64,000 nt of DNA from positions 64,593 through 128,592 of the forward strand of contig WJKK01000001.1 of the NCBI GenBank assembly GCA_014729135.1, written 5' to 3'. This document shows, one piece after another, positions 4,734 through 32,447 of this stretch. Positions within the stretch are counted from its first letter, which is position 1. Every line of letters begins with the position of its first letter. The notes beneath the pieces are model-generated. The model worked only from the letters and a program-made list of their open reading frames with translations, made no database searches and had not been told where the DNA came from. The DNA comes from a candidate division WWE3 bacterium (GTDB lineage Bacteria > Patescibacteriota > WWE3 > UBA101185 > UBA10185). Made by a program: the position numbers and the translations under genes.

Positions 4734-4750
4734 AGAGCGAACGTCGGGAG

Positions 4751-5647
4751 TTAGTCAGAGCCCCACCATGGGAAATCCCGGGCGGGGTTGATGGGAGCTT
4801 CCCCATCTTCGGTCGGGCAGATGACGACGCCACCGTGAGGGTACTCGAGCCGGATTGGCTCGGTGGCGTCGAAGTTGTACTGGATTTCCTCACCATCAAA
4901 CTGATCTAGGATCAGCGTGGTGTTCCCGAACGTACGTCCGGGCTGGAGCCAGTACAGCGCGAAACCCTCCGTGTACGTCACCGGATCGGAGGCTGATGCC
5001 TCCACGGACCGGCGAATTGCGCCGACGTAGTCGGGGCTGTTCGTCAGGCGATCCAGAGCCACGTACAACTCTCCGGAACCCTTGAGGTCGTTGATCATGG
5101 AGACCAGAACCCCGGCCGGGACGCAGGTGGCGTCTCCAACCTGCCGGATGGCGGCTTCACCGTCGATTTCGGGCGCGCCGTCCAAGGCGATCAACCCGAA
5201 GGTGCTCGGGATGTCCGCGGGGCCGGTGACCGCCCAAACGCCAGTGCGCCCGTCAACGATCAGGGGAGTAACGTTCTCCGGAATCCGGCCGTAGAAGCCG
5301 GTCCAGATGACGTACGTCCCAGAGATCGGGTCCAGCGCGGTGGGACCGTTGACGTGGACCTTTCGGGGGTCCGCGTCTAGGAGATCGATGGCGTCGTAGG
5401 GGTCCAACTCACTGAGGGTGATCACCAGTGCGTCGAACTCCTCCGTCGGCTCCACAGTGGGAACCGCGGTCGGCGGGGCGACGGGAACGGGGGTGGAAAC
5501 GACCGTAGGTTCGGCGGGGGGCGTCGCGTCGGAAGACGCATCGCCGCCGAACAGAACGTAGCCGGCGAATCCCAACCCGAGGGCCAGGACGCCGATCGCG
5601 AACAGAACGACCAAAACCCGGACAACGGCCTTCATGTTAATCGTCAT
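4751..5647 (-). CDS. Membrane-anchored or secreted protein with a Pro/Ala/Thr-rich linker, encoded in a high-GC island; function unknown
   Basis: 298 aa. N-terminal TM/signal anchor (VVRVLVVLFAIGVLALGLGFAGYVLF), then a PPAEPTVVSTPVPVAPPTAVPTVEPT linker. Strong RBS (AAGGAGACTTAAAATG). Local GC ~62-65% versus ~40% in the flanks. Confidence 0.6.
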   Translation of the reverse strand: MTINMKAVVRVLVVLFAIGVLALGLGFAGYVLFGGDASSDATPPAEPTVVSTPVPVAPPTAVPTVEPTEEFDALVITLSELDPYDAIDLLDADPRKVHVNGPTALDPISGTYVIWTGFYGRIPENVTPLIVDGRTGVWAVTGPADIPSTFGLIALDGAPEIDGEAAIRQVGDATCVPAGVLVSMINDLKGSGELYVALDRLTNSPDYVGAIRRSVEASASDPVTYTEGFALYWLQPGRTFGNTTLILDQFDGEEIQYNFDATEPIRLEYPHGGVVICPTEDGEAPINPARDFPWWGSD

Positions 5648-5716
5648 TTTAAGTCTCCTTTGCTCACGCCGTTTTGGCGGAGCTAGTAATTGTTCGAGCG
5701 ATCGAGAAACGCGAAA

Positions 5717-6037
5717 TTACTCCCAGACGAAACGGAGCCGGCGGCGGGAGGGGGCGGCGGGTGCCGGAGCGGGTGCCGGGGAAATCTGATTGGCCCGCTC
5801 GAGCAACTCCTGACCACTATCTGTCAGGATAGCGGCCAGCTCCCGCTGGGCCTCAGCCACGCCCTTACGGGCTTCGTCGGCGGCCTCACGGGCCTCCGAG
5901 ACCTCTCCAGCCTTCTCGGCCAGAGTTTGCATCGCCTCGTCGGCGGCCGTCTGGGCGGCCTGATGGGCGGTCATAGCTTCAGTCAAAACCTCTTGTGCCT
6001 CACGCAAACGCTCCTGAACCTCTACCAATGTAGCCAT
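5717..6037 (-). CDS. Small Ala/Glu-rich coiled-coil protein in the high-GC island; function unknown
   Basis: Start placed at MATLVEVQERL, preceded by AAGGAGGAACAGAAAATG; the ORF track's longer start lacks an RBS. Heptad-like AEAQ/EAxxEA composition and a Pro-Ala tail. Confidence 0.5.
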   Translation of the reverse strand: MATLVEVQERLREAQEVLTEAMTAHQAAQTAADEAMQTLAEKAGEVSEAREAADEARKGVAEAQRELAAILTDSGQELLERANQISPAPAPAPAAPSRRRLRFVWE

Positions 6038-6063
6038 TTTCTGTTCCTCCTTAAGGAATGATT

Positions 6064-6087
6064 GGGGCCTGTGGCCCGGTTTTTTTC
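6064..6087 (+). terminator. GC hairpin plus T7 run at the right edge of the GC-rich island
   Basis: ggggcc-tgt-ggccc followed by ggttttttt. Confidence 0.35.
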
Positions 6088-7030
6088 GAACGATTCCATC
6101 TCCGCAAACTTCTGCAGAGTACTGCAAACCTAAAAGCAACTTGGCACTTTAAATCCTCCCAAATCCCACACTTCACATCTAAAAAACAAACAAAAAGTGC
6201 TCAAAATTACTCCCAAGTTAGCAGTACCCTACTTTGGTTTTGCGTAGTGGAGATTCTGAATCAAGTTCAGAATGACGTTTCCCTTGTCAAAGAAGTATTC
6301 CCTTACCGGAACAACGCTTCCCTATCAGAGAAACATCTCCTTGTCGAAATGACGTTTCTTCACGAAAATCAAAAACCTACAAAAAGGAAAAATGACTTCA
6401 AGAATTTAAGCAATACCTTTGTATTTACTAACTAACCCTATTTAATTATCAAACTGCCTTTAAATGGCTAAAAAGCTATTTAAAAATTCAACCCTTAAAA
6501 ACTTTAAGCAAGATTCTTGCTTTTAGACATTAAGAGCTGATTTAGAAACTCCTCCTAATTGCCAAGCAACCTTTGCGGGGTCGCGTGCATGTATATATAA
6601 AGGAGAAATTGCTAAATCATTTGCTATTTAGCTTAGCCTTTATCCTTGTAAGTGCTGTAAGTAACCGAATAAAGCGGCGTAATAGCTTGTTAGCAATGGT
6701 ATCAGTAGTATCAGTGTTATCGGTGTTATCAGGCCAAACTTTGGAGGTTTTTATGTCCTCCTCATTTGCTGATGACTAAATCATACTATGGGACAGGTGA
6801 CTTGTCAAGTGTTATGGGATACTTTTGTGCTGGGCTGCTTCATTGGCCCACTTTAGTGACCCGCAAGAACACAGCACAAGGAACTGGAAAGGAATCTAGG
6901 AGAGTCCTGTCCGCAACATCCCCTAACTGAGGTTTATTATACTACGGGTTATAGGATGTGTCAACTTGTCGCATTGGATAATAATTTTTGTCATCCAAGC
7001 CCTCTTGTTGAAATGCAAAGTGGGGCAAAA

Positions 7031-17966: not shown

Positions 17967-19082
17967 CTAACTCATTTTCTCCAAAAGTCGAGTACTTAAA
18001 GCCAGCTTCTGATTGTCACTATCAACCAAAGTCACAATAGCCTCTACTTCTTCACCGGCCTCCAAAGGACCACTAGCCTCAGAAACATGAATCAATCCCT
18101 CAAGCCCCTGCTCCACCGTAACAAAAGCACCAAAAGGAACAATACGACTTACGGTTCCGGTAATCTTTGTACCAACGGGATACTTCTCCTGAACGTCTTC
18201 CCAAGGATTAGGAATCAAACGCTTAACGCTTAAAGCAAGCTTTCCGGAGTCCTCATCAATTCCCAAAACTTTAACCTCAATCTTTTCACCTACTTTATAG
18301 TAATTACCGGGGTTGTTGACCTTTTCCCAAGCAATCTCACTGATATGAACAAGCCCTTCAACACCTTCCAAATCCACAAAAATTCCAAAAGGCATTAATC
18401 CTGTTACTATGCCGGTTAAAATGTCGCCAACCTCAATTTTTTCTAGCTTTTCCTGGCGGGCTTCATCGCTGTAGGCTCTGGTAGCTTCCTTTTCGGAAAG
18501 AACCAAACGATTCTTGTCCATGTCCACCTCAATTACCTTTACCTTCAACTCTTTACCTTCCAAAACCTTAAGGGATTCCTTCAATTCCGCTTCACTGCCG
18601 GCAGCAAACTTAGCAATATCTTCTGCAAAGTGAACGCGATCCAAATGGGAAAGGGGTACAAATCCGCGGAGCCCCATGCAGTCAACCAAAAGGCCTCCTT
18701 TATTATATTCTTGAACCTTTACGTCTAAGACGATTTCATTTTCAAAGGCGTCTTCAACGATTTTCCACTGTCGATCTTTTTCGCAACGCTTAAAGGATAA
18801 AACTACATAACCTTGGCTATTTTCAGGTTGAACTACTGCTGCTAAAGCGGTGTCTCCCGGTTCTAGATTTCGGGCACTTAAAATACTGTCACCAAGCTCA
18901 GAACCTGAAACAACACCTTCAGCCTTGGCACCTATGTCCAATAAAACTTGTTCGTGAGACACACTTATCACTACACCTTCAACTAATTCTCCGGGGTGAA
19001 ATTGTTTAACTTGAATACCATGCTCTTCTAAGAGCTGATCCATTACAGAGGATTCTGTATGGACTTTTTTTGCATTTGCCAT
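17967..19082 (-). CDS. rpsA: 30S ribosomal protein S1 (short, ~4 S1 domains)
   Basis: Repeated S1 OB-fold motifs (G-x-V-x-G-x-V, FGAFV/FGIFV). Confidence 0.8.
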   Translation of the reverse strand: MANAKKVHTESSVMDQLLEEHGIQVKQFHPGELVEGVVISVSHEQVLLDIGAKAEGVVSGSELGDSILSARNLEPGDTALAAVVQPENSQGYVVLSFKRCEKDRQWKIVEDAFENEIVLDVKVQEYNKGGLLVDCMGLRGFVPLSHLDRVHFAEDIAKFAAGSEAELKESLKVLEGKELKVKVIEVDMDKNRLVLSEKEATRAYSDEARQEKLEKIEVGDILTGIVTGLMPFGIFVDLEGVEGLVHISEIAWEKVNNPGNYYKVGEKIEVKVLGIDEDSGKLALSVKRLIPNPWEDVQEKYPVGTKITGTVSRIVPFGAFVTVEQGLEGLIHVSEASGPLEAGEEVEAIVTLVDSDNQKLALSTRLLEKMS

Positions 19083-19206
19083 AATAAATTCTCTCGCTTT
19101 GATTAAATTTTTAATACATTCTTTGACTATTCCCCATGGAGGGGACTACAAAGGATCCTACAACAAAACGACAAACCAGTAGGATTTGGATGCGATTTAT
19201 AAACAT

Positions 19207-19338
19207 TATCCCGGCGACGACCTATCTTCCCAGACACGCGGTCTAGTATTTTCAGCGCTGGTAAGTTTAACTTCTCTGTTCGGAATGGATGTCCCGACAA
19301 GCGGGACGTAGAGGTGGGTCCTTACCGCCATCGTCACC
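19207..19338 (-). rRNA. rrf: 5S rRNA
   Basis: The reverse complement reads ...ccattccgaacagagaagttaaacttaccagcgctgaaaatactagaccgcgtgtctgggaag... with helix I ends ctcggtgacgatggcgg / ggtcgtcgccgg. Boundaries are approximate. Confidence 0.6.
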
Positions 19339-20170
19339 GAGATGATGCTTATAAACTGAGCTCATAACGGATATCCCCTTTCTTGCTCAGGCTTCCCTTC
19401 GGTCAGAATTCGCTCAAAAGGGGATATCCGAAATTCGCTAGGTGTATGAAGGCGAGAAGTGAAATGCTTCCTAACCTAATACACAAAAGTGCTTGTTTTA
19501 CTTTGAACAAGGGGATTCCCTTTTGCACGACATTTCGGAGCAAAGCGACGTCGTGGAGTGCAAAAGCGGAAACACTTGTTCAAATCCAACAAGAACAAGC
19601 ACAAATATTCTATTTTCAAAGAAATCAAGTAGATCAACTGCGCTCAATTGCCTCACAAGTTATTTAACAACTCGTAAGCTAGAAAAGAAGCGCAACATTA
19701 GTACTGCTCGGCTGAGAATTCCTCCAAACGTCATCATTTTTCCTAAGCAAAAGGGCAAGCCCAATTACTTTTGGAAGGCCGATTCAGTAAGAGAAATATC
19801 TACACACCCCTTACGGGGCTTACACCTACAGCCTATCAACCTGGTAGTCTCCCAGGAGTTGCGACCCACTTAAAGTGGGATAGTCCTAATCTTGAGGTGT
19901 GCTTCGTGCTTAGATGCTTTCAGCGCTTATCACGTCCGAACGTAGCTACCCAGCGATGCTCCTGGCGGAACAACTGGTACACTAGAGGTTCGTTCATTCC
20001 GGTCCTCTCGTACTAGGAATGACTCCTCTCAGGACTTTGCGCCTGTTGCGGAAAGGGACCGAGCTGTCTCACGACGCTCTAAACCCAACTAACGCGCCTT
20101 TTTAATGGACGAACAGTCCAACCTTTGGGACCTTCTCCAGCCCCAGGATAAGACGAGTCGACATCGCATG

Positions 20171-21006
20171 TTAATCAATTATTACTAATTGCACTGACTA
20201 TATCTTCTTCCTCATTCCTTTAAACCATCCATTTGTTTAAAGAGATAGGAGTCGGCGTATTATGAAAGTTTAAAATACAACACTTTACTCAAGTCTTCCA
20301 TCTCGCCCGCTTTTACGGGCTCAGTCGATACGGGGTCATAACAAAAGTTTATACTTCATACTCTCTATTATCAGAGGCTCCGTTAAGGTATTAAACCTTT
20401 TAACGCATCTCTTATAAAGGCGTATTCTGAAGTAAATTTTATCCTTATTCAAAGAGCCTTCTAAACCAAGTTCAGTTAGCTTTTTGAGAAGAAAACTCTG
20501 ATCCTCCAGGTCAAATTGTTGAGTATTGAAATAAACAGAATCCCTGTCTTTAGAACCATCATCCATAAACCATACAGCTAAAATCAAAGGATCTAGCTTT
20601 AGGTTTCTAGGAATGGTCTTGTACTCTTTTTGAGAATAATAATCCTCATAGAATACATTCAGTTCAGGCAGACTTCTGGTTGTAAATCTATAAGAAAAAC
20701 GGTTTTTCCCGGATTTTCTTAATTTTGGAGGAGTTAAAACATAAGATTTCAACTTCTCATACAACCAAAAGACATAGTCTTTCTGTTTATTAGAGTGGTT
20801 TATCTCCAAAAGAGTATTTTTTCTCCTTCGTAAAGAACCATCTCCCAACAATTTCCCTGTTATTATGGATTTTTGGACTTTTGTCAGACTTCCCACGGTA
20901 TCATCCATGTACAAAATAATACCACAATGTACATTAGGACTCCACCGTTATTAGCCGAATTTTTGGTACCGAATTACTTCGATAGCACCCCTTTCTATTT
21001 CCTTGT
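20171..21006 (-). mobile_element. Group I intron in 23S domain V, at the E. coli ~U2500 site (GGCACCU|CGAUGUCG)
   Basis: The exon junction reconstructs the conserved GGCACCTCGATGTCG. The upstream exon ends in U and the intron ends in G. It contains a LAGLIDADG ORF and shares 5' and 3' sequence blocks with the 16S intron. Confidence 0.75.
20336..20914 (-). CDS. LAGLIDADG homing endonuclease (single-chain, two motifs) inside the 23S intron
   Basis: Motifs ITGKLLGDGSL and ILAVWFMDDGSKD. N-terminus MYMDDTVGSL is paralogous to the 16S-intron ORF. Confidence 0.8.
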   Translation of the reverse strand: MYMDDTVGSLTKVQKSIITGKLLGDGSLRRRKNTLLEINHSNKQKDYVFWLYEKLKSYVLTPPKLRKSGKNRFSYRFTTRSLPELNVFYEDYYSQKEYKTIPRNLKLDPLILAVWFMDDGSKDRDSVYFNTQQFDLEDQSFLLKKLTELGLEGSLNKDKIYFRIRLYKRCVKRFNTLTEPLIIESMKYKLLL

Positions 21007-21049
21007 AGGTGCCAAACAGTGCCGCCGCTGTGGGCGCTCGGGCACTATT

Positions 21050-21080
<31 letters not shown>

Positions 21081-23140
21081 ATAAGTTCCGGGCCTACCAT
21101 TAGGCACTCGGAAGATCACTAAGACCTACTTTCGTATCTGCGCGATTTGTATATCTTGCAGTCAAGCTCCCATATACCTTTACGCTTACATCCCGATTTC
21201 CATCCGGGACAAGGGAACCTTTGTGCTCCTGCGTTACTCTTTAGCAGGAATCCGCCCCAGATAAACTGCCCTTCAAACATTGTCCTCTCACCCGATAAGG
21301 GCGAACAGTTAGGCTTGCACTAGTGAAAGAGAGGTGTTTCATCGACGTCCTCCAGTCGTTAAACGGGAGAACTCCCTCCTACTCTACACAGTCAATAGCA
21401 CGCACCAATGTCAGAATACAGTAAAGCTCCACGGGGTCTTTCTGTCCAGCAACAGGTAACCGGCATCTTTACCGGTAGTTCAATTTCACCGAGTTCGTGA
21501 CTAAGAGAGTGCTCAAGTCGTTACACCTTTCGTGCGGGTCGATAATTATTCGACAAGGGATTACGCTACCATAGAACAGTTATAGTTACTGCTGCCGTTC
21601 ACCCGAGCTTGAACCGAAAGCTCATTCCACTCCTAAGAGGGGAAATCACCTCCAGTCTTAACTTACAGGCACTGGGCAGGTGTCGGCCCCTATACCTCCT
21701 CTTGCGAGTTTAGCAGAGACCTGTGTTTTTAATAAACAGTCGCTTGAGCCATTTCTGTGCCCCCCACGCAATTAAGCATGGGGCATCCTTTTCCCTAAGT
21801 TACGGATGTAATTTGCCTAGTTCCTCGGCCACGATTCTCTCGTTCGCCTTAGTATTCTCTACTTGTCTACCTGTGTCGGTTTGCGGTACGGATACTAAAA
21901 AACCTCCCTAGAAGCTTTTCCCGGGAGCTTAACGCAACCGGATCACGCCTTTCGACGCTTTTCCCCCGGCTCACGTGAGTCTCCTTGCGGAGACAACGCC
22001 CGTACGGATTTGCCTGTACGGACTAGCTTGCCTTCGGGACTCAAATCCATAATGAGCCCGGCCTATCAAACTCCGTCCCTCCATTGGTAAAAACGGTTTT
22101 TCAGTAGTGCAGGAATATTAACCTGCTGTCCATTAGCTACGCCTTTCGGCCTCACCTTAGGACCGACTAACCCTCCGATGACTGACATTGCGGAGGAACC
22201 CTTAGACTTTCGGCGAGGTGGGTTTTCACCACCTTCTCGTTACTCATGCCAGCATTCTCTCTTGATAACGCTCCAGCAGCCCTCGCGGGTCTACCTTCTG
22301 TGCTACGTTCAAGCTCTTTTGAAGCCGATCCTGATTTACATCAGGATGACATCTTTAAAAGTTTGAATGTTATCAATGCTCCCCTACCTTCTGCCTCCTA
22401 CAAGAGGAGACAAAACCATAGTGTCGGTTCTTTGCTTGAGTCCCGTTAAATTTTCGGCGCAAGGCCGTTTAACTAGTGAGCTGTTACGCTTTCTTTAAAG
22501 GTTTGCTGCTTCTAAGCTAACCTCCTAGCTGTCTAAACAGACTTACTTCCTTTCTCACTAAGCATTCCACACAAGGTGGAACCCCCACAAAAGTGGGGAA
22601 AGATTTGGGACCTTAACTGATGGTCTGGGATGTTTCCCTTTCGCGCTAGGAACTTGCTCCCTAGAACTGACTCCCGGTCAACGGATTTGCGCATTCGGAG
22701 TTTGGTAAGAGTTAGTACGCAAAAGCGCCTAATCTCTTTTCAGTATCTCTACCTCACAAATCCTATAAGACCAAGGCTATACCTACATATATTTCGGGGA
22801 GAACCAGCTATTGCCAAGTTCGATTACCGTTTCAGCCCTAACCACAGGTCATCCGAGCATTTTTCCACATACACCGGTTCGGGCCTCCATCCACCTCTCG
22901 ATGGACTTCACCCTGCCCATGGTTAGATCACTTGGCTTCGGGTCTAATAGCACGTACTTATCGCCCGTTAAGACTTGGTTTCCCTTTGCCTCCACGACTG
23001 AATCGTTTAAGCTTGCACGTGCAATTAACTCGCTGGCTCATTTTTCAATAGGCACAATATCACCCGAACTTATCCGAAGATAAGTGGGCTCTATCAGCTT
23101 GACTGTGTACGGTTTCAGATTCTATTTCACTCCCCTATCC

Positions 23141-23185
<45 letters not shown>

Positions 23186-24262
23186 GTCTTGACGTGTTTA
23201 GCCTTAGCAGATGGTCCTGCTTCCTTCACACGAGGTTACCGTGTCTCGTGTTACTCTGGACAACTCAAGAAGATTCTTTGTTTCGTTTACGGGGCTATTA
23301 CCCTCTTTGGCTCCACTTTCCAGGAAGATTCTCCTACAAAAAATTTTCTAACTTCTTTTGTCTTAAAGACATAGAGTTTCCGAACCGCCAAGCACAAATA
23401 TAATTTGTGCTTGCCTTTGGGCTGATTCCCGTTCGCTCGCCGCTACTAGGGAAATTACTTAATTTAGTTTCCTTTCCTCCGGTTACTAAGATGTTTCAGT
23501 TCACCGAGTTACCTTCTCTTTACCTATACCCCACGAATTGTGAGGTTTTAGTAAAGGATAACTGTATTAAACAGATGGGTTTCCCCATTCGGAGACCCCC
23601 GGCTAATAACGCTTCTTATCAGCTGACCGAGGTTTATCGCAGATTGGCGCGTCCTTCTTCGGCATCAAGACCCAAGGCATCCACCATACACATTGAGTAT
23701 CTTTTCCAGCTTACAAGTTGGCACACAACCTGTAAGACAGTAATAAAGGTATTTCCTTTATTACGAGGAATATCTCCTTTTTGTTTTAAGGCACTCTCAA
23801 AGGGAGCGTCTTACCGCCGCCCTTAACGCCTTCTCAGGAGATATTTCATTCGATGAGGAAACGAGGTCCTCACCACGTTTCCTACAATTGAACATTTGAT
23901 ACTTTTAAAACGTTTGGTTTTACCCTTACGTTTTATCTGTATTGTTGATCTACTTAATTTTCAAAGATCTGTTAAGTTTGCGCGTGTGATTGCTTTTGCG
24001 TTCACATTTGGCAAAGTTAACTTAGCAAACAAAAGTGAGAGCATTCTAGTGCAGACACTTTGTTTATGCTTTTCAAGTTGGCTAAAGCCTAACTTGAACG
24101 GCTTCTGAAAACCTCTCTAAAGAAGTTCTCAAGACTGACAATCTCGAGGAGAGATCGTCAATCTTAAAAACTCCTAGTTAATCGGCTTTAATGAAACGTT
24201 TTGAGCCGAGAGGCATTGTATCATATGGTTTTTCAATGTAAATGACCCAAAAAGTTCCGCGA

Positions 24263-24335
24263 AATTTCAAAATACTCAATCCGCCTTCGGCGGATTTCGG
24301 GCATAAGCAAATCTTCCAGATTTGCTTAAGCGCAT
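24263..24335 (-). other. Two hairpins 3' of tRNA-Ala, before the 23S 5' end; possible processing or termination structures
   Basis: Near-palindrome gcataagcaaatcttccagatttgcttaagc (24301-24333) and aatccgccttcggcggatt (24278-24296) with a weak T-run on the minus strand. A copy of the first palindrome also lies 5' of tRNA-Ile at 27886-27918. Confidence 0.35.
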
Positions 24336-24357
24336 TAAAGTGCCTTTGGCACTTTAA

Positions 24358-24434
24358 TGGTGGACTCGGCGGGAATCGAACCCGCGACCTCCGCCATGCA
24401 AAGACGATGCTCTAGCCAACTGAGCTACGAGCCC
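24358..24434 (-). tRNA. tRNA-Ala (anticodon UGC), CCA encoded
   Basis: The reverse complement gggctcgtagctcagttggctagagcatcgtctttgcatggcggaggtcgcgggttcgattcccgccgagtccacca folds as a cloverleaf. Anticodon loop cuUUGCAug. Confidence 0.85.
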
Positions 24435-24478
24435 AAAAACCTGCCTCCGGCAGTTTTTGGGTCCAAGCAAACGTCAAA

Positions 24479-24520
24479 GACGTTTGTTTGCTACCTAAAA
24501 GGTTACAAAGTAACCTTTTA
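24479..24520. repeat. 42-bp direct repeat, copy 1, containing a perfect hairpin aaaaggttac-aaa-gtaacctttt
   Basis: gacgtttgtttgctacctaaaaggttacaaagtaacctttta. Second copy at 24711-24753. Confidence 0.6.
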
Positions 24521-24710
24521 CCCGAGAACCACCTACGGAAGCTCAAGGACTTAACAAAACGCCTTGCGTTTTGTTATGCCCAAAAATTTCAAAGAAATTT
24601 TTGGGGCCAGGTAAATGCGATTGAACAGGAGCATTTAGCTGGACCGTAAAACTTCTATGAAGTTTTACAAGGCATCCGAAAAAAGCTCAAGAGAGCTTTT
24701 ACGCAAAAAA

Positions 24711-24753
24711 GACGTTTGTTTGCTACCTAAAAGGTTACGAAGTAACCCTTTAA
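24711..24753. repeat. 42-bp direct repeat, copy 2 (2-3 mismatches)
   Basis: gacgtttgtttgctacctaaaaggttacgaagtaaccctttaa. Confidence 0.6.
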
Positions 24754-24883
24754 TCCTGCACAAAGTACAAATAAAGCAACTCCAAATATTAAATTAAAAA
24801 CCGGGATATCAGAGCCTCTTTTTTAAAGAGGATTAATTCCATTCCTAGTGAATCCATCAATGAATCCACGCAACAATAAGTTA

Positions 24884-26113
24884 TCATTCAAACAGGCGCA
24901 TGTCAACACTTTTAAGCAAATTCTTCAGACCATTTAACCCCTTCGAATGTTCCCCCGCTTCAGAAACAACCTCCTCATACATTTCAAGCGTCTGACTTGC
25001 AACATTAGACCAATCCATATGGGAAACCTTCTCCTTAGCTGCCAAACACAGCGCCTGATAATCCTCCTGGGGCAAACTTGCCAACTCCTTTAACTTAGCA
25101 GCAAAATCCTTGGGAGCCGTTTCCAAAGGAAAGTTATAACCCACCGAAACATCCACAAACTCATTAGTAGTTTCATTTTCCAAAGACACAATAGGCGTAC
25201 CCGAAGCCAAAGCCTCCAAAACCGACAAACTCTGAACCTCCTTTAGTGAAGCGGACACAAAGAAATGAGACTCTTCAAGCATTTTAGGTATCTTCTTATG
25301 AGGTACTTTACCTACAAAACTAACTAAAACCTCTGCTTTTTCAACTTTATTCTTCAGAAGTTCATCATAACCATCATTCAATGGAACCCCTATTAGATTG
25401 AGCTCAAACTCCTTTTTGGGTAAATGTTTCATAGCATCTATTAAATACGCCTGATTCTTGCGCTTGTTAAGGTAACCAACAAAAATCAGCTTTTTTGGAG
25501 TTGCTGTAATGTCCGCGCAAGACAAGTCTGCGTAATTTTCGAGGTTTCGCCCGTTAGGTATCGTATAAACAGGCGTTTCTAAGTCGTAAGTTTCCAAGTC
25601 TTTTAAAACGGAGTCGTTTATGGCGATGATTGCAGAGGACTTCTTTAGAAACAGGTCAAAGTAACTGTCAAAAACTTTAGAGTCAAAAAGCGATTGCATC
25701 TTTGGAAAGAGCTCTGCTAAACCAAAAGTCACAACCTCTGAGGGAATTGTGTGAGAGGTGAAAACCGTAGGTGTCTTATTTTTTAGTGCCCACAAAAGAG
25801 AAACAAAAGCTGCAGGACCTTGATCATGAAAGTGGATTATGTCGGGAGAAAAGTCACGCAAAACTTTAAGGAGGGAGTTGATTTTTACAGGGTCCAGAAG
25901 CGGTAAAATGACGTCTTGCTTTTTTCTACCGGAAATCTCAAATTGAGTAAAGGTTTTTGTCGTTTTTGTTTTCCCAGTTTCTTCTCCGGAGAGGATTAAA
26001 AGGATATTGTTTTCGGAGGGCGTTTTTGACAAAACTTCTGCAAGCTCCCGGGCTACACGGCCATCCCCTCCTGAGCTATTTGCTGATGCACTGGAAACAA
26101 AAGCGATATTCAT
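24884..26113 (-). CDS. Glycosyltransferase family 4 (GT-B fold)
   Basis: The C-terminal E-x7-E region (EAEVLVSFVGKVPHKKIPKMLEESHFFVSASLKEVQSLSVLEALASGTPIV) is typical of GT4. Confidence 0.75.
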   Translation of the reverse strand: MNIAFVSSASANSSGGDGRVARELAEVLSKTPSENNILLILSGEETGKTKTTKTFTQFEISGRKKQDVILPLLDPVKINSLLKVLRDFSPDIIHFHDQGPAAFVSLLWALKNKTPTVFTSHTIPSEVVTFGLAELFPKMQSLFDSKVFDSYFDLFLKKSSAIIAINDSVLKDLETYDLETPVYTIPNGRNLENYADLSCADITATPKKLIFVGYLNKRKNQAYLIDAMKHLPKKEFELNLIGVPLNDGYDELLKNKVEKAEVLVSFVGKVPHKKIPKMLEESHFFVSASLKEVQSLSVLEALASGTPIVSLENETTNEFVDVSVGYNFPLETAPKDFAAKLKELASLPQEDYQALCLAAKEKVSHMDWSNVASQTLEMYEEVVSEAGEHSKGLNGLKNLLKSVDMRLFE

Positions 26114-26140
26114 GGCAGTTTGAATTCTAGCACACCCGAA

Positions 26141-26325
26141 AAGGGACAGTCCTCTAAGGGGACAGTCCTTTTTAAAACCTACTCTGAAATTCTAGTCTAA
26201 ATAGAAGGGGCTTTAAAAGAGAAACTCTATCGCAAAAGTCAAAAATCAACTTCCTTAACTTCCGAAACTTCTAGTTTAACTAGAATTACTAAAGAGGACA
26301 GTCCTTTAAGAGGACTGTCCCTTCC
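26141..26325. mobile_element. MITE-like composite palindromic element (module A-B' ... B-A) in the GT4 / relA divergent intergenic region
   Basis: Left end aaagggacagtcctctaaggggacagtcc...attctagtctaaatagaa. Right end cttctagtttaactagaattactaaagaggacagtcctttaagaggactgtccc. The ends are imperfect inverted copies of each other (~60 bp). Confidence 0.45.
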
Positions 26326-26354
26326 AGACAAAGCTGCGGTATAATAAGGGCACC

Positions 26355-27770
26355 ATGTCCCTCCCCCAAGCCAAAAAACTGGCAGAAAAAATCTACAAAA
26401 ACAAAACCCGCTTATCCGGGGAAACCTACTACGAACATGCTCTAGAAATCGCGAACCGCCTAAAAAAGTATGGAATCCAGGAAGAAATCACTCTAATAAC
26501 AGCAATCCTCCATCACGCCCTCGACGAGAAAAAAACAACAGCCCAATCCGAAATTGCAGAAATCAGCAAAGAAGCTGCAGACCTTCTAGAGAAATACAAG
26601 CGCCTCACAAAAACCGACATAAAAACAGAATCCCTTACCACTTATAACGAGCGCTACATAATGCAAACTTTTGTAAATCTGGTGGAAGACATTCGAGTCC
26701 TTATAATTAGAGCCGTAGATAAATTGCATGCCCTGGAAAATTCCTGGGCCTTGGAAAAGGAGAAACGTGAGGAGGCTGCTCAAAGAGCCCTTTACCTTTA
26801 TGCCCCCCTTGCAAAAATCCTGGGAGTATCGAAAATTTCAAAAGACCTGGAGGATACAGCGTTTAAAATCCTATACCCGGACAAATACTTTAAAATCAAA
26901 AAAAGTGTACAGAAGCGTTCTTGGGGTACTAAAAAGATTTTTAGGGAGGTGGAAAAGTTTTTAAAGGAGATTCTAGCGGAACAGGGTATTGAGAACTTTA
27001 AGATTCAATATCGGGTTAAAAGTGCTTATAGTTTGCATCGAAAGGTAGAGCGCTACAAAAAGGAAGGTAAGGCGCTGGGCGAGGATTTGAGTAAGATTTA
27101 TGATCTTTTTGCACTTCGTCTCGTTCTTAATACAGTGGAAGAGTGTTACCTAACAGAAAACCTCCTGGCACAACTTTGGGAGGAAATTCCAAACGAACGG
27201 GATGACTACATTAAAAATCCCCGAAGCACAGGTTACCAATCAATCCATAATGCCTTTCAAATTGACAACGACTTCATTGCGGAAGTGCAAATTCGAACGC
27301 ATGAAATGCATCAACAAGCGGAGTTTGGCATTAGTTCGCATCTTTTGTATAAGATTGGGGATAAAGGGGCAAAGTCAAAGGCCGTAGATAAATTCAAAAA
27401 GTACCTCCAAAAACATCCGGAATGGTTTAAGGATTTGAACTTCTGGGAGATTGCGCCGGATAAAAAGTATATACCTAAAACTCCCTTTAGTGACAATATT
27501 TACACGTTTACACCAAAGGGGGATATTATTGAGCTGCCTAAGGGGGCTTCAGTTGTAGATTTTGCCTATAAGGTGCATACGGAGGTGGGCAATAATTGTG
27601 CGGGAGCCTTTGTTAATGGGAAAATTGTTAAGTTGGATCATGTTTTGAGGACGGGGGATACGGTGAAGATTAAGGTGGATAAGCGTAAGCGGCGTCCAAG
27701 TAAGGATTGGCTGGAGTTTGTGGAGACGCGGGCAGCGAAGATTCATATTAATCGTGCCTGGCGGGAGTGA
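26355..27770 (+). CDS. relA: RelA/SpoT-family (p)ppGpp synthetase: degenerate HD, synthetase and TGS domains, no ACT domain
   Basis: HD region ETYYEHALEIANRL...ILHHALDEK (canonical LHD replaced by LHH). Synthetase motifs YSLHRKVE, DLFALRLVL, YQSIHNAF, EVQIRTHEMHQQAEFG. TGS IYTFTPKGDIIELPKGASVVDFAYKVHTEVG. Confidence 0.85.
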   Translation: MSLPQAKKLAEKIYKNKTRLSGETYYEHALEIANRLKKYGIQEEITLITAILHHALDEKKTTAQSEIAEISKEAADLLEKYKRLTKTDIKTESLTTYNERYIMQTFVNLVEDIRVLIIRAVDKLHALENSWALEKEKREEAAQRALYLYAPLAKILGVSKISKDLEDTAFKILYPDKYFKIKKSVQKRSWGTKKIFREVEKFLKEILAEQGIENFKIQYRVKSAYSLHRKVERYKKEGKALGEDLSKIYDLFALRLVLNTVEECYLTENLLAQLWEEIPNERDDYIKNPRSTGYQSIHNAFQIDNDFIAEVQIRTHEMHQQAEFGISSHLLYKIGDKGAKSKAVDKFKKYLQKHPEWFKDLNFWEIAPDKKYIPKTPFSDNIYTFTPKGDIIELPKGASVVDFAYKVHTEVGNNCAGAFVNGKIVKLDHVLRTGDTVKIKVDKRKRRPSKDWLEFVETRAAKIHINRAWRE

Positions 27771-27787
27771 TAGCTATTCAAAGTATT

Positions 27788-27864
27788 TATGGTGGGCGTT
27801 CATGGACTCGAACCATGGGCCTCTCCCTTATCAGAGGAGTGCTCTTACCATCTGAGCTAAACGC
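27788..27864 (-). tRNA. tRNA-Ile (anticodon GAU), CCA encoded
   Basis: The reverse complement gggcgtttagctcagatggtaagagcactcctctgataagggagaggcccatggttcgagtccatgaacgcccacca. Anticodon loop cuGAUaa. Begins 18 nt after the relA stop on the opposite strand. Confidence 0.85.
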
Positions 27865-27871
27865 CCTTGAA

Positions 27872-27892
27872 ATACTCGCCTACGGCGAGTTT
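27872..27892 (+). terminator. Putative intrinsic terminator for relA, located antisense and just beyond tRNA-Ile
   Basis: ctcgcc-tac-ggcgag followed by tttt. Confidence 0.4.
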
Positions 27893-27980
27893 TCAAGCTT
27901 AAGCAAATCTGAAAGATTTGCTTATGCCGTGCAAGTCCGAAGGACTTGTACGATAAGCCTTTGTAAACAAATTTTTTTGG

Positions 27981-28018
27981 TGATCAAAATGTGAGCGTAC
28001 TAACGCGAGCATTTTGAC
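27981..28018. repeat. 38-bp repeat R1 (hairpin caaaatgYgagcg-tactaa-cgcgagcattttg), upstream (5') of tRNA-Ile
   Basis: tgatcaaaatgtgagcgtactaacgcgagcattttgac. A near-identical copy R2 sits 5' of the 16S. Confidence 0.6.
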
Positions 28019-28652
28019 CTCCCTAACAAGTTCTGTAAGAACTTGTTAGTACTGTTGAAATTTCAAGCGTGCCCTGGATGGACACAACCCAACCAAAGCT
28101 CGCCTATAATAGCACAAACAAACTCCACACCCAACCACTAAAACTGCTAAAATAACTCCATGAACCCTGCCACAAACAAAACCCTCCAGAAAATACTAAT
28201 CCCACTTCTTATAGCAACCATCCTAAGCATCAACAAAATCCTAAATATACAAAGCGCTCAGCAAGTCATGCGCGTTTTTGTGAGAATTTTTGTAATTACG
28301 TCTGTGATTTTTGTTGGAATTAAGCTAGTCCCGCAAATTTTTAACCATATTGTTAACGATTAAAAAGAAAAAACGACAGCCCCTTCAGAGTTAACTTCCC
28401 TCTTCCGGGGCTTTAGTCTATTCATCTTCCTCCTCCATAAATTCGACTAAAAATTCCTCGAGGGTCATTGAACACGAATTCCCCGAAGAACGATCTTTGC
28501 CAAAAATTCCCCACAGAAAAAGCAAGAGCAAAGCACCAAACAACAACCACTCATCCATCAGAAACCTCCTTTGAAAGTTGCAAAAATACCACCAACCTGC
28601 CAAGTATACTAAAACAACAAACCAAATTTTAAAAACAAAACAAATAAGAATA

Positions 28653-28684
28653 AAACAAAAAAAGCCTACCATTACGGTAGGCTT
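28653..28684 (-). terminator. Intrinsic terminator ~300 nt downstream of the 16S 3' end
   Basis: Minus-strand hairpin aagcctacc-gtaat-ggtaggctt followed by a 7-nt T-run (plus-strand aaaaaaa before the stem). Confidence 0.5.
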
Positions 28685-29422
28685 AATTTAAAAATCACTT
28701 ATATTTGCTTCAACTTCTCTCTAAACTCAAAATTCAAGAAACCAAAGGCAAAAAGAATGCTCATCTACGAGTTTTGTTATGTGTGAATATTCACCACACA
28801 ACGGCTCACTCGAAACCTTCCCAAAGCTGCTTGTGAGTTACACAGCTCTACTGACTACACGATTTAGGGATTATCACATGTAGTAGGTGTTTCTTCTTTT
28901 GAAGGGCTTTTTTGTAAGTTCATACAAAAAAGATTCCTGCAATCAAAAACACTTGTTACTCCTTAGAAAGGAGGTGATCCAGCCGCAGATTCCCCTACGG
29001 CTACCTTGTTACGACTTCACCCTCATTACTGATTTCACCATGGGACCCCTTAAAAGAGGTACTTCAGGTGACCTCAGCTTTGCTGATGTGACGGGCAGTG
29101 TGTGCAAGACCCGAGAACGTATTCACCGTCGTTTTGCTGACCGACGATTACTAGCGATTCCAACTTCATGAAGTCGAATTGCAGACTTCAATCCGAACTG
29201 AGATGCGCTTTAGGGATTAGCTTTACCTTACGGTATCGCGATACTCTCTGTACGCACCATTGTAGCATGCTTCTAGCCCCAGTCATAAGGGCAATACCGA
29301 CTTGACGTCGTCCCCGCCTTCCTCCATCTTACGATGGCAGTTCCGCTAGAGTGATACAACTAGCAGTAAGGGTTGCGCTCGTTAACCCACTTAAGGGTAC
29401 GCCTCACGGTACGAGCTGACGA

Positions 29423-30294
29423 CCATGTGTAATTCCATTGTTTCCAATGGCACTGACTATATCATCATCCCAATTTTTGCATTGGGAGATCGGCGTGTTA
29501 TGAAAGCGTTTATCCCCACTCATGATTATGTGAGGTAACTTCCATCTCTCCTATAAAAGGATCAGTCGATACGGGGTCATTGTAGTTTTCCGGAAATAGA
29601 ATACTTCCCGATGCCTTCTAGAAACTTAGATAGGGTACTTTTTGAAAAGTACAAACAATAAGTTCCGGCAGCAGAATATCTATATACGGATGTATTTATT
29701 CCTGTGAGTAGGGATCGATCAAGGGATAATTCCGTTGAATCGCCATAAACAATTCTACAGAAAGTTCCCTCCGGAGATATTGAACCATCTCCATCAAATC
29801 TACCCGCAAAATAGGGATAAATACATTCCTTTGCAAGATGTTTCCTATTGGAAAGAGAATATAGGAATTCTCTAACTAAAGGCCTTGAATTAACATAAAC
29901 GTGATAGGCCATTGAAACATTTTTCGAACACTTGCAAAAAGACTTTTTAAATCCTTCGAAACGCTTTGGAATCTCATTACCGTAAATACGGACTCTAACT
30001 CTCTCTTTAGGAAACCTTTCTAAAAGGAAATCTAAAGATCTATAGAGTAAGGTAAGATTCGTATTACTTAGTCCTATGCTGCTGGTTCGTAAATAACGAT
30101 CAGCACCCCAAAGACCAAGAATATAAGCATCTTCTGGATTTGTAAGTAAACTACCAAGACTTCCCACGGTATTGTCCATACACTTATATTAGCATAAGAT
30201 GTATTAGGATTTCACCGTTATTAGCCGATTTTTTCGATAGCGATTACTCGCTAAAGGGCCATCGTTGACGCAGGCCTAAGCCTGCTTTGTGCAT
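29423..30294 (-). mobile_element. Group I intron in 16S between GCAUGGCU and GUCGUCAGCUCG (E. coli ~1059/1060), carrying a LAGLIDADG ORF
   Basis: The exon junction reconstructs ...acaggtgttgcatggct|gtcgtcagctcgtaccg. The upstream exon ends in U and the intron ends in G. Shares cagtcgatacggggtcat and gatatagtcagtgc blocks with the 23S intron. Confidence 0.7.
29577..30179 (-). CDS. LAGLIDADG homing endonuclease inside the 16S intron
   Basis: MDNTVGSLGSLL N-terminus, motif 1 AYILGLWGADRYL, motif 2 YPYFAGRFDGDGSIS. Confidence 0.75.
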   Translation of the reverse strand: MDNTVGSLGSLLTNPEDAYILGLWGADRYLRTSSIGLSNTNLTLLYRSLDFLLERFPKERVRVRIYGNEIPKRFEGFKKSFCKCSKNVSMAYHVYVNSRPLVREFLYSLSNRKHLAKECIYPYFAGRFDGDGSISPEGTFCRIVYGDSTELSLDRSLLTGINTSVYRYSAAGTYCLYFSKSTLSKFLEGIGKYSISGKLQ

Positions 30295-30578
30295 AGCCAT
30301 GCAACACCTGTGTATGCTTCCTAATAAATTAAGATCGGGCACCTTTCGGATTCCTACTACAAACATGTCAAGACTGGGTGAGGTTCTTGGGTTAGCAACC
30401 AATTAAAGAGCATGCTCCACCGCTTGTGCGGGTCCCCGCCAATTCCTTTGAGTTTCAGCCTTGCGACAATACTCCCCAGGCGGCCTGCTTAACGCGTTAG
30501 CTTCGACGCTCAGTCTTAAGACCAAGTATCTAGCAGGCATAGTTTACGGCTAGGAATACAAGGGTATCTACATATTGT

Positions 30579-30886
30579 TACTATGGTTGGATTGATTACC
30601 AACTCCTCATATCGCTATGAGGATCGGACTATATCATTATCTCAACGAATTGAGATATTTGGCGTATAGTCTCTGAGGATTTCCATACTAAAGTGTCCCT
30701 TACTATGGATCTTTCCTGCTGATTGTCTGCACCGGAAGCATTTTTAGGCATTATGAATATTATAGTAATTGTTGTTACCTAATTCAATACCTAGCCCCGG
30801 ATACTCAGATGTTCCAGCATATAGCCAAATTTTAACTCTATAAGGTCGCCCTAATAGAGGGACCGATACCTTGTTGATCCTTTTCT
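30579..30886 (-). mobile_element. ORF-less ~300-nt insertion in 16S near E. coli ~770-785; putative small intron
   Basis: The exon sequence ...gacgaaagctaggggag is followed by non-rRNA sequence until ...tagatacccttgtattcctagccgtaaac resumes. Shares motifs (ttggcgtatagtctctgagg, ccagcatatagccaaatttt) with the insertion at 31150-31512. Boundaries are approximate. Confidence 0.5.
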
Positions 30887-31149
30887 CTCCCCTAGCTTTC
30901 GTCTCTCAGCGTCAGCACAGCCCCAGACAGTTGGCTTCCCCCTTGGTGTTCCTCGTGATATCAACGCATTTCACTGCTTCACCACGAATTCCACTGTCCC
31001 CTAGCTGGCTCTAGTAATACAGTATTGAAAGCAGTCTCTCGGTTGGGCCGAAAGATTTAACCTCCAACTTATATTACCGCCTACAGAACTCTTTACGCCC
31101 AGTAAATCCGGATAATGCTTGCACCCTACGTTTGACCGCTGCTGCTGGC

Positions 31150-31512
31150 TTCTGCTATAGGTTAACCCCCATACTGCAGCTTGTGAGTTATTAATTAACT
31201 CGCCTTGGACTATCTCTTCATCCTCATTCACCTTGGTTAAGGGAAAAAAGGAGTTTGGCGTATAGTCTCTGAGGGCTTTCTCATCATTAGTACAAAAACA
31301 AAATAATATTGCGTACTAAATTAGAGGTTGCCTGCTGATTGTATTGCAATCCATAAGTGGAGCGCGGTTCGCCCCTTTTCGAATTTCCAAAGGATTGTCA
31401 CTGGAGTTTAACTCCGAGTACCTTTGTATTAACAATAGTTTCCAGCATATAGCCAAATTTTCTTATCTAGTGTTACCACTAGAACTACGCACCTGGTCTT
31501 CTTTCAGACCTT
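31150..31512 (-). mobile_element. ORF-less 363-nt insertion in 16S that splits the 515F primer site (ggctaactacgt | gccagcagcagcgg); putative small intron
   Basis: Both exon halves are seen in the sequence. The insertion begins with an inverted repeat aactacgtaaggtctgaaagaagaccaggtgcgtagtt (P1-like). Related to the 30579-30886 element. Confidence 0.55.
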
Positions 31513-32140
31513 ACGTAGTTAGCCGGTGCTTTTTAACGTGAGTTTACAACCCGAAGGCATTCATCCTCCACGCGGCGTCGCTGCGTCAGACTTTCGTCCA
31601 TTGCGCAAGATTCCCGATTGCTGCCTCCCGTAGGAGTGAGGCCCGTGTCTCAGTGCCCCTCTGCCGGTACATCCTCTCAGATCCGGTACCCGTCATAGCC
31701 TTGGTGAGCTTTTACCTCACCAACAAGCTGATAGGCCACAGGCTCGTCCCTAACCGATAAATCTTTGGAGTTTCCTCCACATCGGGTATTAGTTCACCTT
31801 TCGGTGAATTATTCCCGAGTTAGGGGTAGATTCCTATGTATTACTCAGCCGTTCGCCACTAACTATTTAAGGTGTCTACCCGAAGGTAGACGATATAAAT
31901 AGTCCGTTCGACTTGCATACCTTAGGCACGCCGCTAGCATTAATCCTGAACCAGGATCAAATTCTCAAAAAAACATTCTTTTTGCCTTCAGTCCCTCGAA
32001 TAAAATTTCAAGAAACTTAAAGACAAGCGATTTTTAGCTCTATTTAGGTTTTCAATGTGCAAAATAACTAAGTCCAGTTGAAATTAGATATAAACTAATT
32101 CTAAGTAGGAATTATTTAAGCTCGTGAAAACCTAAATAGT

Positions 32141-32178
32141 TGATCAAAATGCGAGCGTACTAACGCGAGCATTTTGAA
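32141..32178. repeat. 38-bp repeat R2, ~165 nt 5' of the 16S 5' end
   Basis: tgatcaaaatgcgagcgtactaacgcgagcattttgaa, ~36/38 identical to R1. Confidence 0.6.
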
Positions 32179-32447
32179 CTACCTCAAAGGTTTCCAAAGG
32201 AAACCTTTGCGAATCCTAATCCTAGAAACCAAACTTAATTTCAATAAGGAATTTTAAAATAAACCCCTCCTGCCAAGATCATAACACACAAAAACTCCCA
32301 AACCTCAGCAATAAGGAAGATACCAAGTAAAACCAACCTCGTCAACCCTTTCTTATTGCGGCATACTTTCCACAATAATTCCCACCAGAATCTACAAACG
32401 GATACCTAAGGAGCTACTACCACCCGTAATATGAAAATCCCATACGA

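Follow-up and report, generated by a model that had tools for sequence, protein, structure and literature searches.

In a candidate division WWE3 (Katanobacteria) bacterium with a tiny genome, the single ribosomal RNA (rRNA) locus is very likely split into two transcription units, one for 16S rRNA and one for tRNA-Ala, 23S and 5S rRNA, with a cassette around the gene rel between them, an arrangement typical of its lineage. The stretch analysed, here called the window, comprises 64,000 nucleotides (nt) of genome assembly GCA_014729135.1 (contig WJKK01000001.1, positions 64,593 to 128,592 of the forward strand), and coordinates count from its first letter unless those of a relative are given. 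On the minus strand lie, in this order, the 16S rRNA gene (28967-31972; 3006 nt; Rfam RF00177, 1102.8 bits), tRNA-Ile(GAT) (27790-27866), a GT4 glycosyltransferase gene (24884-26113; 409 amino acids, aa), tRNA-Ala(TGC) (24358-24434), the 23S rRNA gene (19771-23707; 3937 nt; RF02541, 2166.6 bits) and 5S rRNA (19209-19341; 133 nt; RF00001, 59 bits), the tRNAs being identified by both ARAGORN and Rfam. The plus strand carries rel (26355-27770; 471 aa; Pfam domains HD_4, RelA_SpoT and TGS) and small67 (28160-28363), a gene for a predicted membrane protein of 67 aa. From the 3' end of 16S at 28967 to the 5' end of 23S at 23707 the distance is 5259 bp. The locus does not form a canonical single rrn operon: a terminator follows 16S, rel and small67 occupy the opposite strand, and the GT4 gene is inserted on the same strand.

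An initial annotation made from the sequence of the window had already proposed this gene order, small67 apart, and Rfam, ARAGORN, the list of open reading frames (ORFs) and Pfam place its coordinates within a few bases of the correct ones. Its relA-like gene (26355-27770, plus strand) and GT4 gene (24884-26113, minus strand) are borne out by their Pfam domains, which for the latter are Glyco_transf_4 (E 1.1e-16) and Glycos_transf_1 (E 6.3e-22). The presence and strand of tRNA-Ile were also correctly given, but the proposed position of 27788-27864 is slightly shifted. That annotation had not noted the three insertions of 16S, the 23S insertion with its LAGLIDADG ORF, small67, or the altered hydrolase motif and shortened C-terminus of Rel.

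Conservation of the locus among WWE3 genomes

Relatives were gathered from the surroundings of Rel homologues and from contigs that carry the exact tRNA-Ile sequence, and were annotated by Rfam, ARAGORN and BLAST. A common layout, 5S(-) 23S(-) tRNA-Ala(-) [GT4, GT28 or nothing] rel(+) tRNA-Ile(+) small67(+) 16S(-), is found in 12 of them (L001, L002/L003, L004, L005, L006, L089, L091 and L093-L097), all independent WWE3 assemblies deposited at NCBI, ENA or JGI, whose Rel proteins range from 71% down to 46% identity to that of the window (46% in L089). The initial annotation had named a comparison with related genomes as a check on its reading; the same order returns in 12 independent assemblies, and a misjoin is therefore excluded as the origin of this layout.

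The part of the locus between tRNA-Ala and rel is variable and holds zero to two genes across the 12 assemblies. Its glycosyltransferase slot contains a GT4 orthologue in L001, L005 and L091 and a GT28 gene on the other strand in L002, and no glycosyltransferase gene lies there in L004, L006 and L089. Conservation of small67 is seen at the protein level: its product shares 56% identity (E 3e-27) with that of an ORF at the equivalent place in L001 (8052-8255) and 40-48% with homologues in L093-L097, the region gives no nucleotide match to L001 by blastn, and the protein matches no Pfam family.

More distant WWE3 genomes are organised differently. In L007 and L090 rel is on the far side of 5S, past S1-clpB-radA, and in L008 and L092 it is nowhere near the rRNA genes; because rel sits elsewhere in these four, its placement inside the rRNA locus is a feature of one subclade. 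A contig search with generic back-translated patterns from the Rel alignment returned matches of at most 37% identity in other phyla and no WWE3 loci.

Two conserved rRNA promoters

Upstream of 16S, the promoter P16S (32317-32345, minus strand) reads TTGACG-17-TATCTT with a TGn extended -10, and upstream of tRNA-Ala the promoter P(Ala-23S) (24878-24906, minus strand) reads TTGACA-17-TAACTT with TGa, overlapping the last codons and the stop codon of the GT4 gene. The pattern TTGAC-N15-TGnTAnnTT has exactly two matches in the 64-kb window, against 0.05 expected, and these are P16S and P(Ala-23S). It likewise has exactly two matches each in L001, L002, L004, L005 and L089, at the two equivalent places, and one match each in L091, L093 and L095, at the single place that the contig covers. 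The pattern is thereby conserved upstream of 16S in L001, L002, L004, L005, L089 and L095, and exact matches at the P(Ala-23S) position occur in seven relatives.

Alignment of the surrounding DNA leads to the same picture. In eight genomes, TTGACA, a 17-nt spacer ending in TGn, and TAAnTT stand upstream of tRNA-Ala as an island in DNA that cannot otherwise be aligned, and the alignment upstream of 16S gives TTGACn-17-(TGg)TATCTT, an architecture like that before tRNA-Ala. The -35, the spacing and the -10 are invariant within each of the two alignments, the rest of which is unalignable. Across the locus, a generic scan for promoters and terminators yielded overall counts not above the shuffled expectation and did not distinguish these two sites, so that it is conservation only that singles them out. 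Taken as a whole, the comparison strongly supports two rRNA promoters, one upstream of 16S and one upstream of tRNA-Ala, and TTGAC-N15-TGnTAnnTT offers a candidate strong-promoter signature for an uncultured clade.

The 16S transcription unit

From its near-consensus sigma-70 promoter at 32345-32317, the first unit would yield a pre-16S RNA alone. The leader contains a 52-nt hairpin element (32141-32192, minus strand), which shares 88% identity with a second copy at 27981-28032, zero such matches being expected by chance. Further downstream lies CACATTGAAAACCT (32046-32059, minus strand), a boxA-like element, so named for its resemblance to known boxA sequences; it is part of an aligned block, GCWCWTTGAMAA, that is kept in the window, L001, L004 and L005 and not in L002 and L089.

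Leader and trailer are predicted to pair into a processing helix, presumably a substrate of RNase III. Its 5' strand (31973-32001, minus strand) is nearly invariant in the relatives, L001 having one double change from G-C to A-T, and pairs almost perfectly with 28732-28761. This 3' strand, placed by cofolding, closes the 16S trailer (28732-28966, minus strand) and begins about 205 nt past the mature 16S 3' end, an unusually long interval. The trailer shares 73-87% identity with five relatives, in a region where other spacer DNA is unalignable. Duplex energies of leader and trailer did not discriminate against shuffled controls, as long AT-rich sequences score high even when shuffled; the assignment of the helix therefore rests on contiguous pairing and conservation.

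Beyond the helix stands T16S (28652-28684, minus strand), an intrinsic terminator by sequence, with a G+C-rich stem-loop followed by a T-run: AAGCCTACC-GTAAT-GGTAGGCTT, then TTTTTGTTTT, the stem having 10 bp with five G-C pairs. The initial annotation had pointed out a terminator about 300 nt 3' of 16S; the scan recovered it at 28684-28662, and equivalents exist in nine other loci. All ten loci that carry the trailer motif, the window and nine others, have a stem-loop (dG -10 to -16 kcal/mol) with a T-run 28-108 nt after the helix strand, and their stems comprise five different sequences. A place that is kept through turnover of the sequence is what a functional terminator looks like, and 16S transcription is predicted to end there, at 28684-28652. 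Given its own promoter, its processing helix and a terminator conserved in position and variable in sequence, pre-16S appears self-contained, in agreement with the earlier proposal of an autonomous 16S unit.

A tRNA-Ile module inverted in the window genome

In all 12 relatives tRNA-Ile lies on the strand of rel, opposite the rRNAs; only in the window genome has it been flipped back onto the rRNA strand. The inverted segment comprises the tRNA with its 5' leader (27787-28048, minus strand) and matches L001 at 7950-7780 and L002 at 11767-11627 by blastn in reverse orientation, so that the module measures at least about 260 nt. It probably reaches to about 28134, or about 330 nt, which would take in a candidate promoter at 28106-28134 (minus strand), TTGGGT-17-TATTAT with TGc. 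The L001 homologue of this candidate reads TTGGTG-17-TGCTATTAT, the extended -10 of the window being located at 28114-28106, and TGnTATYAT or TATAAT is present upstream of tRNA-Ile in most other relatives. Within the leader lies the second copy of the 52-nt element of the 16S leader (27981-28032, minus strand), which L001 has in two places, ahead of tRNA-Ile and in the spacer from tRNA-Ala to 23S.

The opposite orientation in the relatives, the movement as a module, the homologous extended -10 and the shared leader element together suggest that tRNA-Ile has a promoter of its own, with support weaker than that for the two rrn promoters. The gene would then form a small self-contained unit made of a candidate extended -10 promoter, a hairpin leader of 170-250 nt and the tRNA. 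Its inversion relative to all 12 relatives, leader included, supports the claim that tRNA-Ile is autonomous. A second claim, that the rel terminator sits antisense just beyond tRNA-Ile, was not upheld: the structure is a 6-bp hairpin with TTTT that fails the criteria of the terminator scan. In L002 the equivalent hairpin immediately adjoins tRNA-Ile on its 5' side, in the sense of the tRNA, and on this ground it belongs to the tRNA module and not to rel.

A 32-nt near-palindrome occurs both 3' of tRNA-Ala (24300-24331) and, as an inverted copy complementary at 31 of 32 positions, 5' of tRNA-Ile (27897-27928, minus strand); L002 has diverged counterparts. Copies so nearly identical point to recent gene conversion or recombination involving the flanks of both tRNAs.

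tRNA-Ala and the 23S-5S unit

The second promoter (24906-24878), which has the same architecture as P16S, would transcribe tRNA-Ala and most probably also 23S and 5S, through a spacer with a boxA-like element. Downstream of P(Ala-23S) lies a conserved leader element, AGGAATGG...GAAGCTCTGR (24809-24846, minus strand). A hairpin considered for this element was rejected, as RNAalifold gave five pairs, -0.9 kcal/mol and one compensatory pair, and the element is kept as a sequence motif only. The tRNA-Ala leader measures about 440 nt in the window against 55-213 nt in the relatives, a length explained by an internal duplication, visible as a 45-nt direct repeat (24476-24520 and 24708-24752) with 96% identity at a spacing of 232 nt.

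On the other side of the tRNA, the spacer to 23S is 161-270 nt long in L005, L089, L091 and L006, and 555-870 nt in the window, L001 and L002, the window having 650 nt. The hairpins that the initial annotation had noted after tRNA-Ala are present: there are three (24278-24355, minus strand), the 32-nt palindrome at 24300-24331 among them, and in L001 and L002 the structures are kept with different sequences; a T-run follows in the window genome only. An extended -10, TGATACAAT (24215-24223, minus strand), belongs to the scan site TTTACA-16-TACAAT at 24242-24215, a possible secondary 23S promoter, and is present in the window, L001, L002 and L093 only. Closer to 23S, a boxA-like GATCTTTGAAAAT (23957-23969, minus strand) is aligned in the window, L002 and L004, and L001 has a looser version, TTTTTGACA. 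Since the promoter lies upstream of tRNA-Ala, four relatives have short spacers, and the hairpins of L001 and L002 are without T-runs, tRNA-Ala is probably co-transcribed with 23S and 5S as one unit.

Weighing alternative readings

Several points weigh against two units of this kind. The -10 hexamers TATCTT and TAACTT are non-consensus, and the generic scan overlooked P(Ala-23S) and credited P16S with 9 of 12 matches; promoters, terminator and processing sites are all predicted from sequence and its conservation. Some transcription may read through T16S, antisense to small67 and rel. The candidate tRNA-Ile promoter has a poor -35, and AT-rich DNA abounds in -10-like hexamers. In the 650-nt spacer of the window, moreover, there is a terminator-like hairpin (24296-24278) as well as a good extended -10 promoter (24242-24215), for which reason tRNA-Ala and 23S could be separate in this genome; 23S may have a secondary promoter, and some of the transcripts may end at 24296-24278. 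This spacer is what speaks for the proposal of the initial annotation, in which 16S, tRNA-Ile, tRNA-Ala and 23S-5S each have a start and an end of transcription of their own, as it is expanded, contains the hairpin after tRNA-Ala and, in TTTACA-16-TACAAT with its TG, one of the two best sites of the promoter scan, whose extended -10 is common to L001, L002 and L093. The clade-wide promoter, however, stands upstream of tRNA-Ala and not of 23S, where no conserved promoter of the rrn type was found; the short spacers of the four relatives are free of the -10 motifs searched, with one exception in L006, where a TATAAT stands 31 nt ahead of 23S, and the hairpins after tRNA-Ala, being without T-runs in L001 and L002, look like processing or structural elements. 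We thus regard four units as unlikely, and of that proposal the autonomy of 16S and of tRNA-Ile stands, whereas the division of tRNA-Ala from 23S-5S is not supported. The same autonomy implies that the rRNA genes cannot form one operon. Read-through from the 16S promoter all the way to 5S, in one transcript that is cut up afterwards and has protein genes inside its spacer, would fit the canonical order of 16S, tRNA-Ile, GT4, tRNA-Ala, 23S and 5S on one strand, and the boxA-like elements before 16S and 23S, as in canonical operons. It is nevertheless very hard to reconcile with a strong, positionally conserved terminator directly after the 16S processing helix and with a second conserved full promoter before tRNA-Ala. 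In the 12 relatives, furthermore, about 2 kb (rel, tRNA-Ile and small67) lie on the opposite strand, from which read-through cannot yield tRNA-Ile, and we give this reading very little credence.

Within the two-unit locus preferred here, a plus-strand cassette of ancestral type (rel, tRNA-Ile and the 67-aa gene) would converge on the 16S terminator, and the variable glycosyltransferase gene would sit between rel and tRNA-Ala. Another alternative is that the placement of rel is functional: rRNA or tRNA transcription running against rel would interfere with it, or rel transcription with tRNA-Ile, and so couple alarmone synthesis to rRNA output. In its favour, tRNA-Ile follows rel by 36-277 nt in 12 of 12 relatives, and the two genes run towards 16S wherever the contig of a relative extends that far; they are still neighbours in L089, with a Rel identity of 46%. 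The conserved terminator, however, would keep 16S transcription out of the cassette, candidate promoters precede tRNA-Ile itself, other WWE3 keep rel beyond radA (L007, L090) or unrelated to rRNA (L008, L092), and the window genome broke the co-orientation of rel and tRNA-Ile with both genes retained. The locus comparison gave no evidence of a functional link between rel and the rRNA genes, and we consider such coupling quite improbable; most simply, the position of rel is a neutral, clade-specific rearrangement and not a regulatory device. The last alternative is an artefact of assembly, in which the rel/GT4 segment or the flipped tRNA-Ile would be a misjoin. That the window alone among 13 genomes has tRNA-Ile on the rRNA strand, and that palindromic elements occur in and around the module, could be read this way, but the overall order recurs in the 12 assemblies from three repositories, the inverted module is without long flanking inverted repeats able to mislead an assembler, and the module lies cleanly in an interval between rel and small67 that matches L001 in length (389 nt in the window, 383 nt in L001), which makes this the least credible of all, with next to no probability.

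It is worth stating what a functional reading would entail. If rel, tRNA-Ile and the small membrane protein gene were a module kept convergent with 16S by function, which we hold to be distinctly improbable, the rRNA or tRNA units could tune the only (p)ppGpp synthetase through antisense RNA or transcriptional interference, or alternatively tRNA-Ile output could be tied to rel transcription. Either would amount to a feedback between ribosome synthesis and alarmone that is encoded in the layout of the genome, in an organism with a minimal regulatory repertoire. On this improbable reading, the small tRNA-Ile module between its palindromes could also be prone to rearrangement, or even able to invert.

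Relation to known rRNA loci

Brewer et al. (bioRxiv 10.1101/705046) define rRNA genes as unlinked when more than 1500 bp separate 16S from 23S, and list the Patescibacteria, or Candidate Phyla Radiation (CPR), among the clades in which unlinked genes predominate. With 5259 bp the window falls well within this definition, and comparative sequence analysis adds the features of separate transcription, namely the conserved promoter at 24906-24878 and the positionally conserved terminator at 28684-28652. It resembles the unlinked genes of that survey in the gap of more than 1500 bp, in a state conserved across a clade and in its small-genome CPR host. It differs in that 16S and 23S are still neighbours, in canonical order and on one strand, whereas the pairs in the survey are on average about 410 kb apart. 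The survey left promoters and terminator unaddressed, and comparative analysis identifies them in the window.

A closer parallel comes from the Saccharibacteria (TM7), in which tRNA-Ala, tRNA-Ile, tRNA-Val and one to five protein genes of various orientations lie between 16S and 23S (PMC7651992); WWE3 and Saccharimonadia have been called phylogenetically close (PMC12641178). Both loci have tRNAs and protein genes of mixed orientation between 16S and 23S, but the genes inserted in Saccharibacteria encode a 79-aa protein and dihydroorotate dehydrogenase, as opposed to rel, the 67-aa membrane protein and GT4 in the window, whose spacer is without tRNA-Val. The Saccharibacteria paper contains no analysis of transcription units (PMC7651992). 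With the canonical rrn operon, such as rrnA of E. coli, the window shares the gene order, the two spacer tRNAs, the helices of leader and trailer and the boxA-like elements before 16S and 23S (PMC5179076). Unlike that operon, it has a terminator after 16S, a second full promoter before tRNA-Ala and three protein genes in the spacer, and its clade ancestrally carries tRNA-Ile on the opposite strand.

The initial annotation had called the arrangement unusual, which applies to bacteria in general but not to CPR (bioRxiv 10.1101/705046; PMC7651992). Because unlinked genes in Patescibacteria and protein genes in the spacer of Saccharibacteria have both been reported, the class of arrangement is already described, and the specifics of the window are details of a known phenomenon. 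In the literature searched, we found no description of the rel-tRNA-Ile-small67 cassette, of the two conserved promoters, of the positionally conserved 16S terminator or of the tRNA-Ile flip. The locus leaves the current understanding of rRNA or stringent-response biology unchanged and serves as a worked comparative example of an unlinked CPR rRNA locus, in which two strong promoters are nearly identical, pre-16S is autonomous and has a processing helix and terminator to itself, and the tRNA unit is portable. Its anatomy is useful for the annotation of CPR genomes. Long-amplicon surveys across 16S, the internal transcribed spacer (ITS) and 23S would miss or mis-size the lineage, given a 16S of 3 kb, a spacer of 5.3 kb and a 23S of 3.9 kb.

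Insertions in the 16S and 23S genes

The 16S gene reaches 3006 nt because three insertions interrupt it, with boundaries determined by blastn comparison with L001. Its four exons (31972-31513, 31149-30877, 30570-30295 and 29423-28967, minus strand) are collinear with the intron-less 16S of that relative. The first two insertions, at 31150-31512 (363 nt) and 30571-30876 (306 nt), both on the minus strand and without an ORF, score 61.1 and 87.8 bits against RF00028, above its gathering score of 50 bits, and are group I introns. The third (29424-30294, minus strand; 871 nt) reaches 28.4 bits (E 4.8e-5), below that gathering score; it contains an ORF (29577-30179) with a LAGLIDADG_3 domain (Pfam; E 2.3e-6, 28.2 bits, cutoff 22.5 bits) and is probably a group I intron as well. 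The 23S gene holds one insertion (20167-21006, minus strand; 840 nt), whose ORF (20336-20914) matches LAGLIDADG_2 (Pfam; E 2.5e-35). The 16S group I introns are presumably spliced out of pre-16S RNA. As the 16S genes of the close relatives L001-L005 are without introns, those of the window appear recent and sporadic.

According to two papers that cite Brown et al. (2015) on this point (PMC9297842; PMC12641178), introns in rRNA genes are a known trait of CPR bacteria. The three 16S inserts and the one 23S insert of the window, two of them with LAGLIDADG ORFs, are like the introns and LAGLIDADG insertions described there, and as far as these accounts go the window case differs in nothing essential.

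The Rel protein and its candidate promoter

The product of rel is a truncated long RelA/SpoT homologue (RSH) with a pseudo-HD, a synthetase and a TGS domain (Pfam HD_4 1.2e-20, RelA_SpoT 7.6e-31, TGS 1.3e-22). Its alignment with solved Rel structures covers the whole protein, the best match in the Protein Data Bank (PDB) being 6yxa (E 4.5e-77). The 471-aa protein ends about 30 residues after TGS, whereas homologues of 735 aa run about 270 residues further, and the C-terminal domains of the 700-aa class of RSH (Pfam ACT families) are absent. These C-terminal domains have a role in ribosome binding. In the hydrolase region, the HDxxED motif reads HHALDE, LHHALDE aligning to LHDVVED or LHDVPED, so the protein does not have the make-up of a bifunctional Rel/SpoT; HH in place of HD is widespread among WWE3 Rel homologues. 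In the synthetase domain the motifs are preserved, ERDD being of the ExDD type. Compared with the long Rel, RelA and SpoT enzymes (6yxa, 'GTP pyrophosphokinase'), the window Rel has the same order of HD-like, synthetase and TGS domains and differs in its missing C-terminal domains, in the HHALDE hydrolase motif and in the ERDD synthetase motif. Since the HD dyad and all domains after TGS are missing, Rel is probably a synthetase-only enzyme, by analogy with RelA, and possibly independent of the ribosome.

A candidate -10 box, TATAAT, is located at 26340-26345 (plus strand), 9 nt before the ATG of rel, and L001 has the same geometry (6235-6252). This distance in both genomes suggests that the rel mRNA is probably leaderless, and no Shine-Dalgarno sequence is seen before rel in the window (26340-26357) or in L001 (6235-6252). 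The divergent intergenic region between rel and GT4 (26139-26323) contains four copies of a 9-mer, GGACAGTCC/GGACTGTCC, arranged as two repeats of about 33 nt, one of which abuts the -35 position of rel. The repeats are absent from L001 and are a possible operator for some regulator.

Further features of the window

A minus-strand ORF at 28418-28672, with an internal ATG at 28558 after AAAGGAGG, was rejected as a gene, as no relative has a homologue on the expected strand. No RNA family beyond those named emerged from 23600-29000 in a permissive Rfam scan, whose extra matches were noise below the gathering scores.

The 5S gene of the window measures 133 nt, against about 114 nt as usual, and an extra hairpin of ~19 nt (GTCCCGCTTGTCGGGAC) lowers its Rfam score; the 5S gene of L002 (4285-4417) is likewise 133 nt long with a low Rfam score. 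On the same strand, 126 nt downstream, lies rpsA, encoding ribosomal protein S1 (17967-19208), with no evident terminator in between. The order 5S-S1-clpB-radA is kept across WWE3 loci, and because of this conservation rpsA may be co-transcribed with 23S and 5S.

At about 4750-6140 the window contains a GC-rich island (64.5% G+C in 5001-6000, about 41% around it). On its minus strand are two ORFs (298 and 140 aa) with a high content of Ala, Pro and Glu; neither has a significant Pfam family, a sub-threshold match to phiKZ_IP being the only one. The island is probably foreign DNA.

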